A stretch of 13,104 nucleotides of DNA from positions 1 to 13,104 of the IMG/VR virus record IMGVR_UViG_645058835_000001. One strand, 5' to 3'. The stretch's first letter is position 1. Each line of letters starts with the position of its first letter. Origin of the DNA: a virus (taxonomy: Duplodnaviria > Heunggongvirae > Uroviricota > Caudoviricetes). The notes below the pieces were generated by a model. That model ran no database searches. It had not been told where the DNA came from and saw only the letters and a program-made list of their open reading frames with translations. Of this stretch, positions 1 to 5,992 are shown piece by piece. The position numbers and the translations under genes were made by a program.

Positions 1-1230
1 ATGTTTAACAAAATGGATGTAACCAAACTGAACCTCCCGAAGGTTGATATAGAAGAAATGCTTCGAAGGATAAATTCAGGAAAAGCCATTTTATTTACCG
101 GGGCAGGTTTTTCACGTAAAACAAAAAATATAACAAATGGTGAACCACCTCTTGCAAAAGCGCTATCTAAGAAAATAAGTCAGCTCGCAGGGTTAGGTTC
201 TGATAATGAAGATTTAATGTTCACTTCTCGTTTCTTTCTGAAGCACGGAAATAAAAGCGAACTTCTTAAACTATTAAAAGATAATTTTGTGTTGCGTGAA
301 GTTTCTGAATATCATGAGAAAATTTGTTCCTTACCATGGCGAAGGTTTTACACTACAAATTATGATAATTCTATTGAATTGGCATGTCTCAAAACCGGAA
401 GGAGAGTTGAGTCATTGGATATTGATGACCTTCCAAAGGATCATATTTCTCAAGGTGATTTATGTGTACATCTTAATGGCGCTATTGATAAAGCGATAAT
501 ATCCGACCTCGATTCTAAAATAAAGCTTACAAACTCATCTTATCTTTCCCCTCAATCTTTCATTAGCTCCCAATGGAATTACGTTTTTAAAAGAGATCTT
601 GAAACAGCAAGTGCTGTAATATTTGTAGGATACTCCATGTATGATATGGATGTACAAAGATTGCTCTACCAGACAGATAGTCTGGTAGAAAAGACATATT
701 TTATAGTTCATGAAAATGCTAGTTTCCAGGAAACATTTTTTTTGACTGACTTCGGACACGTTTTACCTATTGGAGTAGAAGGCTTTTCTAATTTAATCAA
801 TGATATTCAATTTCAATCCAATGAAAATCGAGAAGAAATATGTCTAGATTGTTTTGAATTAAAAGAAATTAGTTACAATCATGAAACAATTACAGATACT
901 GAAATAAAAGATTTTTTACTCTTTGGAAAGCATGATGATAATCAGATTAACACTTCTGTAAGCAATGATTTTTTAGATAATTTTTTGATAAATCGCGATC
1001 TACTTAAAGAAACTATAAGGTTAATTCAATCCAAAAATAATATTCTTATTCATAGTGAGTTAGGAAATGGTAAAACCGTTTTTCTTAAAATGATAACTTA
1101 TCTGCTCGCTCGTGAAGGATATAATGTTTATACCTTCTCTGAAAAAAGTGAATATGATGATGAATTATCCGAAATTGATTGGATCGTAAAAAAACAAAAA
1201 AAATGTAGTAATTGTGATCGAAGGTTATAA
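1..1230 (+). CDS. SIR2-like (SIR2_2-type) domain protein, N-terminal part of a SIR2-P-loop NTPase; the reading frame terminates inside the NTPase domain
   Basis: 409-aa ORF starting at ATG at position 1 (true start could lie upstream of the window). Motifs in the usual SIR2 order: AILFTGAGFS, RFYTTNYDNSIE, CVHLNGAID, VIFVGYSMYDMD. A beta-strand plus Walker A-like P-loop (ILIHSELGNGKTVFLKMITYLLAREG) sits only ~55 aa before the stop, so the NTPase domain cannot be complete in this ORF. Confidence 0.75.
   Translation: MFNKMDVTKLNLPKVDIEEMLRRINSGKAILFTGAGFSRKTKNITNGEPPLAKALSKKISQLAGLGSDNEDLMFTSRFFLKHGNKSELLKLLKDNFVLREVSEYHEKICSLPWRRFYTTNYDNSIELACLKTGRRVESLDIDDLPKDHISQGDLCVHLNGAIDKAIISDLDSKIKLTNSSYLSPQSFISSQWNYVFKRDLETASAVIFVGYSMYDMDVQRLLYQTDSLVEKTYFIVHENASFQETFFLTDFGHVLPIGVEGFSNLINDIQFQSNENREEICLDCFELKEISYNHETITDTEIKDFLLFGKHDDNQINTSVSNDFLDNFLINRDLLKETIRLIQSKNNILIHSELGNGKTVFLKMITYLLAREGYNVYTFSEKSEYDDELSEIDWIVKKQKKCSNCDRRL
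1188..1203 (+). repeat. Homopolymeric A7-C-A8 tract at the junction of the two SIR2-NTPase reading frames (candidate slippage or frameshift site)
   Basis: Read directly: cgt aaaaaaa c aaaaaaaa tgt. Frame 1 stops at 1228-1230; frame 2 is open from 1190. Removing one A joins them with no stop codon. Confidence 0.9.
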
Positions 1231-2482
1231 TAAAGCAGAACGATTGCTAAATCATATTAATATCAATTATCCTGATGAAATATCGATAATAATTACTGAT
1301 AGAAGTGCAATTGCTTTAAGAACAGCTTACTTCATCAATTCATTAGATATTGAGTTTTCTGAAGTTAGTTTAGATCAGTTAACCGAATCTGAAATTTCTG
1401 ATTTTGTTGATTTGATAGAAAATCAAGGTCTGTGGTCAGAACTTACATCATTGTCAAAGATTAACAAAATCAAAAAAGTTAAAGAAGATTACAATGGCCA
1501 AATCTCAGGGATATTATTAGGTTTACTTAAAAGCCCTTCAATTCAAGAAAGAATCAAATATTTAACAGATGAGTTGTTTAAATCTCAAGAGTATAAAGAT
1601 ACTGTGTTTGCCATAGCATTATGTGACATAATTGATGTAAGAAAAACATCTTCTATTATTTCTGAAATGGCAGGGAATGATAGTATTTATAAAATGAGTC
1701 TTAGATCAAGTGATCAGTTCAAATCTTTATATCGGTTCACAGAAAGCGGTACTGCAATTGAGACAAAATCAAGTCTAATGTCTCTTACGATCATAAATAA
1801 TAGTTTTAATGTGAGCTATGTTAGACATAAACTACTATCAATAGTCGAGACATTTAACAATCTTAAAAATGTATCGTATGATGCAAATAAAATATTTAAA
1901 TCTTTACTAAGGTTTCATGTTTTAGAAGTTTTGCTACCGCAAAAGCAAAAAGCATTGGATAGCTATTACATGGAATTGAAGCGGGTTTGCCCGTGGCTTA
2001 CTGACTCCCCACACTATTGGGTACAATATGCTATGTGTAGACTTTCAATAGGAGATTTAGACTCTGCTCAAACCTATTTAAATGATGCATACTCTTTAGC
2101 TAGATCAAAAGAAGATTATCATACGGAAAATATTGATACGCAGCAGGCTAGATTGCTAATAATGAAGTGTTTAAAAGAACCTGACTCTGGTAAGTGCTTT
2201 GATAGTTTCATCGAAGCTCATAACATACTTATTGGATTGCCTGATGATGGTTATAAGTATAGACAAATAATTCCGTATAAAGATGTCTATGAGCTAAAGT
2301 ATAAACACTTTAATAAAGGTAATAAAGTTCAATTTGAACATGCTTGCAAGGCTCTTTTAGCTCAAGTAAGTTCCGTTGATTACCACCAAGATGATCTTAC
2401 TTTAATTAAAAGAGTATCATTTATAAATAGAAGCAAGGTTATTTTAGAGGAAATAGTAAAAAGTATAACATCCAATAGATGA
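1214..2482 (+). CDS. Continuation of the same SIR2-NTPase protein (rest of the NTPase domain plus an alpha-helical, TPR-like C-terminal region); probably not an independent gene
   Basis: 422-aa ORF in the +1 frame relative to 1..1230, overlapping it by 17 nt. It begins at GTG with no Shine-Dalgarno and has no in-frame ATG for ~140 codons. Its frame opens at 1190, inside the A7-C-A8 tract. Helical repeat-like sequence near the C-terminus (YWVQYAMCRLSIGDLDSAQTYLNDAYSLA). Confidence 0.6.
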   Translation: MIEGYNKAERLLNHININYPDEISIIITDRSAIALRTAYFINSLDIEFSEVSLDQLTESEISDFVDLIENQGLWSELTSLSKINKIKKVKEDYNGQISGILLGLLKSPSIQERIKYLTDELFKSQEYKDTVFAIALCDIIDVRKTSSIISEMAGNDSIYKMSLRSSDQFKSLYRFTESGTAIETKSSLMSLTIINNSFNVSYVRHKLLSIVETFNNLKNVSYDANKIFKSLLRFHVLEVLLPQKQKALDSYYMELKRVCPWLTDSPHYWVQYAMCRLSIGDLDSAQTYLNDAYSLARSKEDYHTENIDTQQARLLIMKCLKEPDSGKCFDSFIEAHNILIGLPDDGYKYRQIIPYKDVYELKYKHFNKGNKVQFEHACKALLAQVSSVDYHQDDLTLIKRVSFINRSKVILEEIVKSITSNR

Positions 2483-2489
2483 TTTTTAT

Positions 2490-2514
2490 AAAGCAGTGGT
2501 TAATACACTGCTTT
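2490..2514 (+). terminator. Hairpin terminator candidate downstream of the SIR2-NTPase gene
   Basis: AAAGCAGTG (2490-2498), loop GTTAATA, CACTGCTTT (2506-2514): a 9-bp perfect stem starting 8 nt after the TGA at 2480-2482, followed by TATATTG. Confidence 0.5.
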
Positions 2515-2781
2515 ATATTGAGTTTCATGAATACACCATTACTGTTATTCAGTACTCATGGCTAGCGTTCTGGTATGTACTCGAGGATATTCTCCGACAT
2601 ATCGGGTTTTAAATACTCAAAACCTCAAGTGAGCGCTTTTATGACGCGCTTTTTGTATTGTTAACCCAACCGTAATCTACAGACAAAAAACCATCAGAAT
2701 CGTGCATAGGCGCTCAAATTTCACGGCTGGGGATTTCTACGTGCATTCAACCCAAAAAGTGACCGAAAAAGTGCTTACAGA

Positions 2782-2803
2782 GTTGACGTTACGTTGACGT
2801 TGT
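2782..2803. repeat. Tandem direct repeat GTTGACGTT x2 with 11-bp period (iteron-like); further TGACG cores at 2884-2891, 2972-2978 and 3005-3010
   Basis: Read directly: aGTTGACGTTacGTTGACGTTgt. Confidence 0.8.
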
Positions 2804-2830
2804 TTTCTGGTGATTTTTGCTCAGTGGTTG

Positions 2831-2856
2831 TTATTATATGTTTGATTATTATATGT
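2831..2856. repeat. AT-rich direct repeat TTATTATATGT x2 with 15-bp period
   Basis: Read directly: TTATTATATGTttgaTTATTATATGT. Confidence 0.8.
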
Positions 2857-2871
2857 ATTTTTAATGTATTG

Positions 2872-2911
2872 CTCACTTCAAACTCACGTCAACTCACTCT
2901 TATAGAGTGAT
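2872..2911. repeat. Three CTCAC repeats at ~10-bp spacing running into a 7-bp-arm palindrome TCACTCT-TAT-AGAGTGA (2895-2911)
   Basis: Read directly: gCTCACttcaAACTCACgtcAACTCACTCTtatAGAGTGA. Confidence 0.8.
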
Positions 2912-3024
2912 TAATTTCTATAAGTACTTTATCTCAAAATTTGATTTTTACGGATGGAAGCCCATCAAAGTAACGTCATTTTTTTCTAAGACTTTGATCT
3001 TTCGTTGACGGTGTTAGTGGGGAC

Positions 3025-3054
3025 TTCGGTCATCGAGCGCAATGCGCTCTTCTG
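3025..3054. repeat. Imperfect 30-bp palindrome with a perfect central 15-bp core GAGCGCAATGCGCTC flanked by GGTCA/TGACC
   Basis: Read directly: GGTCAtcGAGCGCAATGCGCTCttcTGACC. Confidence 0.75.
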
Positions 3055-3188
3055 ACCGTTTCAATGGATAGGTTCGCCTTCTTGCGCCTCTCGCGGCGTT
3101 TGCCGGCTCCGCGCTTTTGGCGGTTTGGCAGGCATATCTCTCTTATTATTGGTCGTTTTTTGCACTGCCTTGTCACGATCTGTCACTA

Positions 3189-4241
3189 CTAGTAGTAATG
3201 GTCATAACCTCCGCTTTCTCTTCTGGCTCTGGATGCTCTCACTCGTGCTTTTCTTAACATCCTTAACAGCGGGTGGGTTTGTACTTTGTTCGAGTTTATT
3301 ATCTGTGAGGATAGTAACTCCCTGCGCTCTGTCTCTGCCTCTTTGGTGACCGCTATCACTGATAAATCCCAATCGTGTTTGCTAATTAACGGTGCTTGGA
3401 ACGGGGTGATTGGTGAGCGATTTATGTCTTGTCGTTTCAATGTACGCTGTATCTGTCGCTTAGCTTTGTAGTTGTCTTTCCTTGATGCCTGAACGGCTTT
3501 TAGTATGCGTCTTACAGCATGAAAGCCAGTGATAGAAAGTGTTTCTTTTTTTATCACATGCCGCGCCCAGCCATTCGAATAACCCCAAACGTTGGCATCT
3601 GACCAATCATATAGGCTCTTGCTCGCCTCTCTATTAAAGTCATTTAACTTAGTTTCGGGCTTTGCCATGTAATCAATCTGTTTACCTATACACTTTGTAG
3701 GCTCTGAATATTGCTGACCTTTCAAATCTAGATCCCACTGGGGAGGAACATTTGATGGGATTGCATTGTTTGCCAGTGTTACCCATTTGCTGACAATTTT
3801 GCCAGCTTGCCCATTAATGCTTCTTTCGTTCACCATGATTATTGCGTGTACATGCGGCTCTGACTGGTGTTGAGCCCACTCCATGACGTAAACCCACTGA
3901 TTGCCTTTCGAAGTCAACCATCTGGTAAGTGCCTTTAACGCTTTGTTGAATTTCTCTGGCGTTGTTCCCTTAACGGGTCTGAAGGTAAAGGAGTAGGGGA
4001 TACCACTAGTTGATTCGACATCCAGAGTAAACAAAGCTCGCCTCATTGTACGCCATTTCTTCTTTGTCCAGGCTGGTGGTATGCAGTGGTTAGCCTTTGA
4101 TGATTGGCGTTTATTCTCTGCCTTTAATTCATTACGTTTGTGCGTAACTGATTTCACATAAGCTAATGTGCGACCATTGATGTGATTGATTACGGCTTGT
4201 GATTTTGTGGATAGACTCGCGTCTTTATCGTATAATTCCAT
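3189..4241 (-). CDS. HUH-endonuclease-type rolling-circle replication initiator-like protein (YfjJ/YagK, inovirus Gp2-like family)
   Basis: 350-aa ORF. Motif order typical of RCR Rep proteins: RALFTLDV / YSFTFRP (motif 1-like), EPHVHAIIMV (HUH), KQIDYMAKPETK (catalytic Tyr-x-x-x-Lys). Basic C-terminal tail. Last gene of a coupled leftward operon. Confidence 0.6.
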   Translation of the reverse strand: MELYDKDASLSTKSQAVINHINGRTLAYVKSVTHKRNELKAENKRQSSKANHCIPPAWTKKKWRTMRRALFTLDVESTSGIPYSFTFRPVKGTTPEKFNKALKALTRWLTSKGNQWVYVMEWAQHQSEPHVHAIIMVNERSINGQAGKIVSKWVTLANNAIPSNVPPQWDLDLKGQQYSEPTKCIGKQIDYMAKPETKLNDFNREASKSLYDWSDANVWGYSNGWARHVIKKETLSITGFHAVRRILKAVQASRKDNYKAKRQIQRTLKRQDINRSPITPFQAPLISKHDWDLSVIAVTKEAETERRELLSSQIINSNKVQTHPLLRMLRKARVRASRARRESGGYDHYY

Positions 4242-4268
4242 GTGTAAAGTTCATATATTTCAATTGCT

Positions 4269-4655
4269 TCAAAGCCGACTCTCGCAAAGTCGGCTTTCTG
4301 CTTTGTCAATCACAGGTATCTGTCTCCTCATCCGTTCTATTGCATGATTGAACCCTAAGTCTTCCGCGAGAGATACGTCATCCATATTGTCATTGTCATC
4401 CTCAATATCCCGTGATTCTGGAATTGCAGACTTTATTCCCGCATTCTCCGCCGCCAGCGCCGCGCACTTGGCCTCAAGGTTATCAATCGTGATTCCAGCA
4501 GAACGGCACTCCCGCAACGCCGTTTCTAGTTTTGATTCAAGTTCACCGAACTTACGGACAAGATATTCAGCGTTTGTTTCGTTAACATTTAAATCACTTG
4601 GGATGCATTTACCTTTCAGAAATCCATCCATCTCAATTAGTGTCATTTGTTTCAT
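4269..4655 (-). CDS. Hypothetical protein (128 aa), acidic C-terminal half
   Basis: ORF with GGAG-like Shine-Dalgarno upstream of the ATG at 4655; its ATG overlaps the stop of the upstream 54-aa ORF (ATGA). Confidence 0.55.
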
Positions 4656-4816
4656 TTCTTCCCACTCCGCAACATCGCATTCAGATATTTGTTTTGATTC
4701 ACTGATGGAAAAGAATTTCTCTTAAGCAATTCCTCTCTCGATGGCATTGGCTTTACGCGTTGGCGAATAATCATTTCTGCCGGAAGAATGCCGGGATTGT
4801 ATGCAAGTCCTCTCAT
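4652..4816 (-). CDS. Small hypothetical protein (54 aa, [54 protein letters not shown]), not in the supplied ORF track
   Basis: Hand-translated from the minus strand with no internal stop. Its ATG (4816-4814) overlaps the TGA of the upstream gene (ATGA) and its TGA (4654-4652) overlaps the ATG of the downstream gene (ATGA), so it exactly fills the gap between two accepted genes. Confidence 0.5.
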
Positions 4817-5103
4817 GATTTACTCTCCACGAACTGGTCAATAGCCATGCTAAGTGACACACCTAAAGTCTCGATATGCTGCTGAATATCCTGTAGCGTC
4901 TGCGCCTGAGATAACAGGATTTCACGGTTGCATAATTCTTTAACCAGATGCTCAAACTTGCTGTAATAACCGATACGGCTTAGTGTTTCTTTCCCTGCAT
5001 TCTCGCCTTCTTTGATAATTCCTCTTTCGCTAAGAATCAGATCGTGTTTGGTTCCGGTAATAACGTATTTTCCGAGGTCGATGTTTAGCTTCATTGTTTT
5101 CAT
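4813..5103 (-). CDS. Hypothetical protein (96 aa; start at [13 protein letters not shown] rather than the longer track ORF)
   Basis: GAGGAA Shine-Dalgarno 6-7 nt upstream of the ATG at 5103-5101; begins 10 nt after the stop of the upstream gene. Confidence 0.6.
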
Positions 5104-5113
5104 TGTTAATTCC

Positions 5114-5407
5114 TCAGTCATTACTGATAGCGCCATAGCGTGAGCGGTAATTACGCAGGCGCGGGTCAATTTCAGGGAAGTGTGTATATGTTGCTTTGCG
5201 GAATGGTCGGATTGATGTCTGGTAAATTCGCTCGCGTTCTTCTTTCTCTGCAAGCCATATACAGTGGCGAAATTCCTTTTCCTCTTTCGTTTCCTGCGGT
5301 AGAGACATTATTCGATCGTAGTTTTTTCTGAATTTATCCAGCACCTCCGATACGGAATTGCCGGAACAGCGGCGTGGGTCATCCGCACCATACAGAGGCG
5401 CTGGCAT
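5114..5407 (-). CDS. Hypothetical protein (97 aa)
   Basis: ORF with AAGGA Shine-Dalgarno ~8 nt upstream of the ATG at 5407; same strand and tight spacing with neighbours. Confidence 0.6.
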   Translation of the reverse strand: MPAPLYGADDPRRCSGNSVSEVLDKFRKNYDRIMSLPQETKEEKEFRHCIWLAEKEERERIYQTSIRPFRKATYTHFPEIDPRLRNYRSRYGAISND

Positions 5408-5430
5408 AATTAAATCCTTATTTTTCTAAA

Positions 5431-5814
5431 TCAGAATGGGATGGAATCGTCGTATACAGGAGTGTTCTGCTGGTTACTACTTTGCTGCTGCGGGCCATTT
5501 CCTGAAGCTGCAAATCCAATCTTTGCATTCAGTAATTCAAGAGTGATTGATTGACCATTTTGCCCCTGATAAACATCAACCCTGATGTTTTCTCCGGTAA
5601 TTTCCACAATGCCACCTTCAACAAGAACACTACGGTAGTAATCCGCTTGCGCTCCCGGCTTGGCAAATACAACGGCGCTGTAGTTTGTCCATTCTTTCTT
5701 TTTTGTCTGGCGATCGTAATACTGAACGCCAGCACGGATGTTGAATCCGATATTTTCCCCGGCCTGAAACTCTCTTGCGGGCTTGTTTAGTCTTACAGTA
5801 ATCGAATGTGCCAT
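5431..5814 (-). CDS. Single-stranded DNA-binding protein-like (short OB-fold SSB with an acidic C-terminal tip)
   Basis: 127 aa from MAHSITVRLNKP. C-terminus ...NTPVYDDSIPF resembles the conserved SSB tail DDDIPF; a Gln/Asn/Gly-rich linker precedes the tail. GGAG upstream of the ATG at 5814-5812. Confidence 0.55.
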   Translation of the reverse strand: MAHSITVRLNKPAREFQAGENIGFNIRAGVQYYDRQTKKKEWTNYSAVVFAKPGAQADYYRSVLVEGGIVEITGENIRVDVYQGQNGQSITLELLNAKIGFAASGNGPQQQSSNQQNTPVYDDSIPF

Positions 5815-5951
5815 TAAGCAGCCGCTCCTTCTAATTCGTCTCGTCTGATGTTGTAAACGCCCTGCGCTTTGTGCTGCTCCGGTGTGCCTTCGAGCATCTT
5901 CCACGCTTTGGCGAACGCCTGTTTAAGCTCTTCTACGGTGTTTTTCTGCAT
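5814..5951 (-). CDS. Possible small leader ORF (~45 aa, MQKNTVEELKQAFAKAWKMLEGTPEQHKAQGVYNIRRDELEGAAA) coupled to the SSB-like gene; start uncertain
   Basis: Its TAA stop (5816-5814) overlaps the SSB-like ATG (TAATG). No convincing Shine-Dalgarno; the longer track version (to 6113) overlaps the DnaB-like ORF on the opposite strand. Confidence 0.25.
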   Translation of the reverse strand: MQKNTVEELKQAFAKAWKMLEGTPEQHKAQGVYNIRRDELEGAAA

Positions 5952-5992
5952 TGCTGCGTCAGTGAATGCTTTTAGAACCTGTTCAGGTGTAG

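Follow-up and report, generated by a model that had tools for sequence, protein, structure and literature searches.

A lambdoid early-left operon remnant probably joined by deletion to the Rep gene of an argW island in Escherichia coli strain 357900

We analyzed a 13,104-nucleotide (nt) stretch of DNA, here called the window, that makes up positions 1 to 13,104 of IMG/VR virus record IMGVR_UViG_645058835_000001, and within it a run of minus-strand genes leading from a gene for a protein resembling single-strand DNA-binding protein (SSB) to an HUH Rep-like gene. Over its full length, the window corresponds to the chromosome of E. coli strain 357900 (NZ_CP038859.1), from which it differs by one extra A (position 1194) and four substitutions (positions 3793, 7872, 10790, and 11086). 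RefSeq annotates this region as a heavily decayed prophage adjoining intS and tRNA-Arg (argW). The annotated genes are, in order, a SIR2 family protein, a "rolling circle replication-associated protein", an ead/Ea22-like protein, DUF2737, DUF5405, a phage anti-RecBCD protein, and a hypothetical protein, followed by an ERF pseudogene that has no N-terminus, a fragment of a DnaB-like helicase from which both termini are missing, Arc/Mnt, an HNH endonuclease, a tailspike, an O-antigen polymerase, and IntS. The prophage appears to be a decayed P22-like one, integrated at tRNA-Arg (argW). An earlier note, made from the sequence of the window, had interpreted the minus-strand run as a single translationally coupled operon for replication and regulation. 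The features listed in Table 1 lead us to a different reading, namely, that most of the run is the remnant of a phage early operon, which a deletion has very probably joined to the Rep gene of a separate chromosomal island.

Table 1. Positions of genes and other features in the window
Feature	Position	Strand	Basis or remark
SIR2-STAND NTPase gene, island cargo	1..2482	+	826 amino acids (aa) in RefSeq; split in the window by the extra A at 1194
Conserved non-coding island backbone downstream of Rep	2681..3188	.	~0.5 kb
HUH Rep-like gene, 350 aa	3189..4241	-	PF23343; RefSeq start shorter, 4046
ead/Ea22-like open reading frame (ea22'), chimeric, 3'-truncated, 128 aa	4269..4655	-	three-way DNA and protein alignments
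Stable hairpin, AAAGCCGACT-N7-AGTCGGCTTT	4271..4297	-	inverted-repeat search and RNA fold
Prophage/island deletion junction	4313..4319	.	7-bp microhomology ATACCTG (minus strand)
DUF2737 gene, 54 aa (HK97 gp38, P22 orf56, ES18 gp44)	4652..4816	-	PF10930
DUF5405 gene (Sf6 gene 24 / ES18 gp45 type)	4813..5103	-	PF17399, PHROG 154; alternative RefSeq start, 5094
abc2, anti-RecBCD protein 2	5114..5407	-	PF11043
SSB-like gene, 127 aa, HK97 gp40 type	5431..5814	-	PHROG 44
erf remnant (erf'), pseudogene	5814..6020	-	last ~67 codons of the 201-aa Erf single-stranded DNA (ssDNA)-annealing protein
Lambdoid DnaB-type helicase gene, internal fragment (P protein of Shiga toxin [Stx] phages)	6016..6789	+	opposite orientation to the block
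mnt-like Arc/Mnt repressor gene	7089-7382		
HNH_3 and AP2-domain gene, homing-endonuclease type	7481-8020	-	between the mnt-like and tailspike genes
Tailspike gene	8033-10210		

The genes from the SSB-like gene to ea22' follow each other very closely. On the minus strand, the TAA codon ending erf' (5816-5814) and the ATG codon starting the SSB-like gene (5814-5812) have one base in common. The stop codon TGA of abc2 (5116-5114) lies inside a GAGGA Shine-Dalgarno sequence that is followed 10 nt on by the ATG at 5103, and ATGA overlaps are found at 4816-4813 and at 4655-4652. All stop/start junctions described in the earlier note were therefore present on this strand. From erf' through the SSB-like gene (ssb), abc2, the DUF5405 and DUF2737 genes, and ea22' to rep, the successive gaps measure -1, 23, 10, -4, -4, and 27 nt, and motifs resembling Shine-Dalgarno sequences (GGAG, AAGGA, or GAGGA) precede all five phage genes. 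Two ATG-type overlaps between open reading frames (ORFs) of at least 50 aa were seen in this 1.8-kb stretch. Among 2,000 dinucleotide-preserving shuffles, 1,938 had no such overlap and 2 had two or more, and the ATG-type overlaps thus exceed what is expected by chance. The overlaps in the block from the SSB-like gene to ea22 fit translational coupling, which we infer from the gene arrangement. The proposal of a single coupled operon therefore holds in part: the SSB-like gene to ea22 form one tightly packed block on the same strand, but Rep is not joined to it by an overlap and lies beyond the 27-nt gap with its hairpin.

Within this block, the 54-aa ORF had been singled out as filling the space between its neighbors exactly. 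It matches DUF2737 (PF10930) with an E value of 3.4e-32 over profile positions 1 to 53 of 53, and it is intact (at least 80% coverage) in 223 phage records, including those of P22, where it is orf56, and of ES18, where it is gp44. Compared with its counterpart in phage HK446, the ratio of non-synonymous to synonymous substitution rates (dN/dS) is 0.36; compared with that of ES18, there are 30 synonymous and 24 non-synonymous differences over the 54 codons, and the ORF appears to be under purifying selection. Its ATGA overlaps at both ends are also found in HK446 and in E. coli GPEC1292. Taken together, the Pfam match, the 223 phage records, and the signature of selection identify the ORF as a real gene. 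The earlier note had named absence or disruption of the ORF in close homologues as the observation that would speak against it, and we found the ORF present in both close and distant homologues. It is not unannotated, as had been stated, since RefSeq already lists it as a "DUF2737 family protein". The one paper that a literature search turned up for DUF2737 concerns Salmonella phage therapy and uses the term once.

The other phage genes of the block could likewise be assigned to known families, with dN/dS values between 0.08 and 0.36 across the block. The SSB-like protein matches PHROG 44, "single strand DNA binding protein", with an E value of 2.9e-27 and shares 26% identity with the ES18 SSB, gp48, whose gene likewise comes after erf. 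An acidic C-terminal tip of the D-D-D-I-P-F type is a feature of bacterial and phage SSBs, and the C-terminus of the SSB-like protein, ...PVYDDSIPF, aligns with the tips FDDEIPF of ES18 and FDDDIPF of E. coli SSB. No Pfam family at an E value of 0.01 or below and no PDB sequence matched this protein, and its gene has a dN/dS of 0.20 compared with HK446. We consider the label "SSB-like" correct, given the PHROG 44 match, the likeness to the ES18 SSB, and the C-terminal tip. The product of abc2 matches PF11043 over its full length (1 to 97 of 97; E value of 6e-64), and it matches chain A of PDB entry 8b1t, "Anti-RecBCD protein 2" (P22 Abc2), with an E value of 2e-58. The DUF5405 protein is identical to HK446 gp29 and, compared with ES18, has a dN/dS of 0.11; it matches PF17399 with an E value of 1.9e-5, over the family cut-off, and PHROG 154 with an E value of 1.4e-32, the PHROG name "replication initiation protein" being an annotation label only. 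Searches of PDB sequences with the DUF5405 and DUF2737 proteins gave no match. The Ea22-like ORF matches the Pfam family Ead_Ea22.

The order of these genes is that of a lambdoid early-left region. Positions 4428 to 6020 share 96% identity with phage HK446 and with related phages, among them HK97, Sf101, and Stx phages, and HK446 gp27 to gp32 are the same genes in the same order with the same overlaps of 4, 4, and 1 nt. In HK446, this block sits downstream of kil, cIII, an anti-restriction gene (ral), N, and the annotated PL promoter, with PL and N located ~2.3 kb upstream of erf. ES18 and P22 retain the order erf-ssb-...-abc2-gp45-gp44(orf56)-ea. Order and families in the window are thus as in the PL regions of P22-like and HK97-like phages (HK446 gp27-gp32; HK97 gp37-gp40/erf; ES18 gp41-gp49; P22 erf-abc-orf56-eaE...eaD). 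In contrast to these intact PL operons, the block in the window is missing PL, N, kil, cIII, and ral as well as two thirds of erf from its 5' end, and at its 3' end the distal ea genes and the excisionase gene are gone and ea22 is a chimeric stump. The block therefore appears to be what is left of the distal part of a PL operon, comprising recombination and "ea" genes, and not a replication operon.

In P22- and lambda-type phages, transcription from PL with N antitermination expresses this block after induction. Packing of this sort, with stop/start overlaps of 1 and 4 nt and Shine-Dalgarno sequences inside the block, is typical of coupling by termination and reinitiation; in the intact phage, it would let ribosomes reinitiate and so keep the small proteins in step. 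There the block supplies recombination functions: Erf anneals ssDNA, the SSB-like protein would coat ssDNA and dock partners via its acidic C-terminal tip, and Abc2 hijacks RecBCD, the small proteins of the "ea" region coming after them. As a gene block, it is of an ordinary and already known kind, a textbook lambdoid early-left block that is annotated in RefSeq.

At its upstream end, the block stops abruptly. In BLASTP comparisons, the product of erf' is identical to residues ~134 to 201 of HK446 Erf and unrelated to it farther upstream. It matches PHROG 1097 Erf with an E value of 5.5e-6, and RefSeq describes it as "ERF family protein, incomplete, missing N-terminus". The possible leader ORF that had been proposed at 5951-5814 is consequently nothing but the C-terminal 45 codons of the truncated erf. 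Nucleotide identity to HK446 stops at 6020. Positions 6016 to 6789, and these only, share 99.1% identity with the P/helicase gene of VT2-Sakai and of Stx1 phages; the encoded fragment matches Pfam DnaB_C with an E value of 1e-27, and RefSeq treats it as a pseudogene without either terminus. With phage identity ending at 6020 and an inverted helicase fragment beyond it, PL and N are no longer present, and two thirds of erf is missing. A deletion at 6016-6020 appears to have removed PL, N, and most of erf and to have put erf' against the inverted fragment. The promoter of the run, which the earlier note had placed inside or upstream of the DnaB-like fragment, would natively have been PL, which is deleted here, and the fragment itself appears to be unrelated DNA brought in via another deletion. 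We also observed a second internal deletion junction at ~6789, the point at which the match to the Stx-phage helicase gene breaks off, ~300 nt short of the mnt gene. The prophage has kept none of its replication-distal, nin, lysis, and morphogenesis genes.

The downstream end of the block lies inside ea22. Identity to island DNA, described below, covers positions 1 to 4319, and identity to Ea22 genes starts at 4313. In the three-way alignment at ATACCTG, the sequence on the right side tracks the 228-aa Ea22 gene and that on the left side tracks intergenic DNA of the island. Of the 128-aa ORF, positions 4428 to 4655 resemble HK446 gp27 and positions 4313 to 4478 match another Ea22 variant, and its last 14 codons are read from the intergenic island DNA of the hairpin region. 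The intact Ea22 protein of strain NCCP15648 has 228 aa and goes on ...RRQIPETPTTDAFLAEVRAQ. As the junction falls in ea22, the annotated "Ea22-like" protein is therefore a stump with an island-derived end. No other complete E. coli genome spans the junction (5,426 searched), and none of the other fetched loci carries the junction string. We thus regard the fusion of ea22' to Rep as an apparently strain-specific deletion at a 7-bp microhomology.

A layout without this deletion can be seen in E. coli GPEC1292. Its left part consists of tRNA-Arg, intS, a P22-like remnant, erf, ssb, abc2, DUF5405, DUF2737, ea genes, Ea22, further genes, and torI; its right part consists of an attachment (att) site, the island from the integrase through Rep, SIR2, the resolvase, and a final att site. 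GPEC1292 thus appears to show prophage and island in tandem across an att site, and the same arrangement of prophage, att, and island is also found in IMG/VR prophage calls. The middle att copy is absent from strain 357900. The deletion would have taken the remaining ea genes, the excisionase gene, the middle att site, and the island genes from the integrase to the 128-aa gene, and it would have fused ea22' to the intergenic hairpin located just upstream of the island HUH Rep gene.

The hairpin at 4271-4297 has a predicted folding energy of -21 kcal/mol (z score of -3.07). In intact islands it is intergenic, between a gene for a 128-aa protein and Rep, and that island gene stops at a TGA upstream of it. 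The hairpin is near-identical in Citrobacter, and right after it the backbone identity ends and Rep divergence begins. We considered it as an intrinsic terminator of the phage operon and rejected this assignment, as it has no U-tract on the coding strand and is derived from the island; it marks only a module boundary.

The Rep-like protein itself scored 29.8 bits against PF23343 (REP_ORF2-G2P), for which the cut-off is 27.8 bits (E value of 7.4e-7), and its distant relatives match the same family. Motifs I (IPYxFTF/LTL), II (PHxH), and III (YxxK) are conserved and occur in the order found in Rep proteins. Among 21 relatives with 18 to 52% identity, E121, P129, H130, H132, W153, Q177, Y191, and K194 are invariant, and the motif I residues T86 and L87 are nearly so; the invariant P129, H130, H132, Y191, and K194 are exactly the residues of HUH Rep motifs II and III. 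With a Pfam score above the cut-off and all three motifs conserved, the label "HUH Rep-like" was correct, and by its motifs Rep looks like a genuine HUH protein that would be expected to nick DNA. A search of PDB sequences with the Rep profile gave no match. The 350-aa start at 4241 is conserved in Klebsiella and Citrobacter homologues at 50% identity, and their N-terminus, MxLYDKDA, supports the 350-aa form as the likely one; RefSeq starts differ between genomes, giving either 285 or 350 aa. One of the four substitutions in the window affects Rep and changes V150 to A in the record. Upstream of Rep lies the 27-nt gap with the hairpin, and no Shine-Dalgarno sequence precedes the gene.

The distribution of Rep does not follow that of the phage block. 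A tblastn search of 50,697 phage records gave no match to Rep, which argues against Rep as a phage gene. PHROG 30534 (215 aa) matches Rep only because it was built from 5'-truncated prophage copies of the gene. Rep is found in 543 of the 5,426 complete E. coli genomes, and all 544 copies are chromosomal. In a search of 1.84 billion cluster representatives, the family had 28 matches at an E value of 1e-3 or below and is thus very rare in sequence space. In O157:H7 and O55:H7 strains (fetched loci L017 to L020, 10001-10717), a 5'-truncated Rep (residues 112 to 350) abuts a P22-like "tail needle knob" gene, and the protein database also holds two chimeras in which Rep is fused to a Rad52-family protein and to an integrase, respectively. 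Prophage and island decay has evidently struck the argW locus repeatedly.

In other E. coli strains, the DNA of positions 1 to 4319, with SIR2, Rep, and the hairpin region, is present at 99.6 to 100% identity as part of an island of 8 to 11 kb. The island has tRNA-Arg(CCT) as its site in E. coli as well as in Klebsiella and Citrobacter. The order of its genes is a P4-type tyrosine integrase, a 251-aa protein (246 or 251 aa among the islands), AlpA (PF05930; E value of 3.6e-18), a 63-aa protein, a helix-turn-helix protein, and a 128-aa protein, followed by the hairpin, Rep, cargo, a 58-aa protein, and a serine recombinase. Flanking the whole are direct repeats of the 3' end of the tRNA, GGTGTCCCCTGCAG. 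Elements running from int and AlpA through Rep and cargo to the resolvase, with 14-bp att repeats, are found in E. coli Z1002, MIN14, and MB07011, and the same backbone occupies the same chromosomal site in Citrobacter and Klebsiella, with a Rep of 50% identity and different cargo. Copies were delimited in four of the fetched loci (L005, 5686-16769; L003, 3776-14097; L021, 5659-13433; and L009, 6421-12476). Rep therefore appears to belong to this argW island, as an element distinct from the prophage, and was never seen in a phage operon elsewhere. In the window, the integrase and the inner att site of the island have been deleted, and no more of the island is left than Rep, the non-coding tail behind it, and the cargo.

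The cargo slot holds a SIR2-STAND gene, a pair of genes for 821-aa and 330-aa proteins, or an HNH_2 gene together with genes for 136-aa and 105-aa proteins, and it ends in a small ORF and the serine recombinase gene. The SIR2-STAND cargo matches Pfam SIR2_2 (E value of 2.7e-10), with weaker matches to nSTAND NTPases, and PADLOC reports a ThsA-like SIR2 domain. PADLOC returned nothing for Rep, the island backbone proteins, or the Z1002 cargo, and no structural, primase/helicase replicase, packaging, or capsid-redirection genes were detected when all island genes were scanned against Pfam and PHROG. At the distal end of some islands, two serine-recombinase modules lie in tandem (L005, 5841-8043; L006, 2842-5044), one of which is a pseudogene that is followed by a gene for a 263-aa HslV-like peptidase (PHROG 1040). 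These tandem modules suggest a stepwise accretion of recombinase-associated cargo cassettes.

Once the island has been excised as a circle, Rep would be expected to initiate rolling-circle replication by nicking an origin on it. A plausible origin is the non-coding tract at 2681-3188. From 2681 on, the sequence is 97% identical to islands with other cargo, and E. albertii and Citrobacter retain part of it. Four copies of GTTGACG (positions 2782, 2793, 2887 on the minus strand, and 3004; total span 2782-3010), three direct and one inverted, flank an AT-rich tract of ~60 nt in an iteron-like pattern that is partly kept in E. albertii. The four copies compare with 1.08 expected, and 3 of 200 shuffles reached four. 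The hairpin at 4271-4297 is the other candidate origin site. An Arg-rich 48-aa ORF at 3030-3176, downstream of Rep, was dropped from consideration, as it is not kept as an ORF in Citrobacter. In strain 357900, Rep is probably stranded, because the island there has lost its integrase and AlpA.

Taken together, we consider it very likely that the run as a whole is a chimera, a PL-operon remnant joined by deletion to the Rep gene of the island. Several points weigh against parts of this reading. GPEC1292 is not the literal ancestor, as its ea genes next to DUF2737 differ, and the deleted interval is thus a reconstruction. The assignment of an HUH fold to Rep draws on the motifs and on a Pfam score just over the threshold, and an AlphaFold2 model of Rep from a 6-sequence alignment was unusable (mean predicted local distance difference test score of 39; predicted template-modeling score of 0.29). 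The origin assignment draws on the repeat pattern only, which shuffled sequence occasionally equaled. Finally, no minus-strand terminator-like site was found between positions 7500 and 2400.

This last point also favors the possibility that the chimeric block now forms an accidental transcription unit in strain 357900, co-transcribed by read-through from the SSB-like gene through Rep, with a minus-strand promoter in the mnt/HNH region or at a weak -35/-10 match at 6815-6786. The missing U-tract of the hairpin before Rep would agree with this, as would the state of the ORFs, which, with the exception of erf' and ea22', are intact and have identical or near-identical counterparts in other strains. 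However, the minus-strand promoter-like matches upstream of the block are weak (9 of 12) and not more numerous than in shuffled sequence (7 found, compared with 8.5 ± 2.6), the hairpin may, with its folding energy, still terminate or pause transcription, and the intact ORFs may just mean that the deletion is recent. We therefore regard such a unit as unlikely, and the block, without its native promoter, would be either silent or expressed through read-through.

Much less probable still is a native translationally coupled replication/regulation operon, which would begin with a leader ORF, continue with the SSB-like gene and small accessory factors, and end with the HUH Rep, with its own promoter in or beyond the DnaB-like fragment. 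The genes do lie closely spaced on the same strand with three overlapping junctions, and SSB and Rep are both proteins of a DNA-replication type. Nevertheless, Rep and the SSB block derive from two distinct elements, with an att site between them in GPEC1292; ea22' and Rep meet at a unique deletion scar, the supposed leader is a piece of erf, and the DnaB fragment is foreign inverted DNA; and Rep is found neither in phage records nor with an overlap or a Shine-Dalgarno sequence of its own. What had been read as a single replication/regulation operon would thus combine the recombination/ea part of a PL operon with a Rep gene from a separate argW island. We give equally little credence to Rep and SIR2 as a moron cassette that the prophage itself gained at the end of its PL operon, since, although defence genes are often found at prophage ends and IMG/VR prophage predictions have Rep at their edge, the att core of the island is found in those predictions 3.5 kb upstream of Rep, which marks them as tandem elements. 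In addition, Z1002, MIN14, MB07011, Klebsiella, and Citrobacter have islands that possess an integrase, AlpA, and att repeats of their own but are not accompanied by a prophage.

Returning to the chimera and its island half, we compared the argW island with known mobile elements. Genomic islands that are integrated at tRNA or tmRNA genes and encode a tyrosine integrase, AlpA, an inovirus Gp2-like (HUH) protein, and defence cargo include the Pseudomonas islands I23, I44, and I55, which are transduced by a jumbo phage, and "phage defense elements" (PMC12595487). Like the I55-type islands, the argW island has a P4-type integrase by a tRNA gene, att direct repeats of 14 bp or longer, AlpA, a PF23343 G2P-like HUH protein, and variable defence-type cargo (SIR2-STAND), and it showed no structural or conjugation genes. 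These likenesses are ones of gene content and layout. The argW island is much smaller, the Pseudomonas islands, I55 in particular, being described as larger; it uses another host and target (argW of Enterobacteriaceae), shows no YqaJ or RadC among the backbone genes scanned against Pfam, and carries a serine recombinase at the cargo end.

The argW island also resembles phage-inducible chromosomal islands (PICI), phage-inducible chromosomal minimalist islands (PICMI), and P4-like satellites, all of them small elements with an integrase, AlpA, a replication gene of their own, and defence cargo. PICI, PICMI, and P4-like satellites have initiators of the primase/helicase type, and most carry packaging or capsid-redirection genes, whereas the initiator of the argW island is an HUH Rep. 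In size and host, too, the argW island differs from PICMI. PICMI makes concatemers consistent with rolling-circle replication (PMC10803314). The viral-contig matches to the island stem from prophages predicted in isolate genomes rather than from particle DNA. In the literature, we found no description of an argW island with a Rep gene, nor of this locus in an E. coli defence-island survey. Tentatively, the argW Rep elements of Escherichia, Citrobacter, and Klebsiella might constitute an undescribed family of minimalist phage satellites or phage-defence elements, which would replicate as rolling circles after excision and swap cargo via serine-recombinase cassettes, a possibility that we put forward with some doubt.

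As to the remainder of the window, the extra A at 1194 falls in an A-run and splits the SIR2-STAND gene into ORFs 1-1230 and 1214-2482; this frameshift could reflect a sequencing error in the homopolymer, or the gene may truly be inactivated. The HNH_3 and AP2-domain gene lies between the mnt-like and tailspike genes. Rfam at the gathering threshold found nothing in the whole window, and a comparison of seven proteins with NCBIfam gave no match besides one at chance level.

In summary, the apparent link between SSB and Rep would be a deletion artefact in one strain, and this finding in itself matters little. It does call for caution, since same-strand adjacency in decayed prophage regions can mimic operons joining different mobile elements. 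The island family is an only mildly new item, and the conserved argW island with its integrase, AlpA, and HUH Rep may be modestly useful for work on defence islands and satellites.

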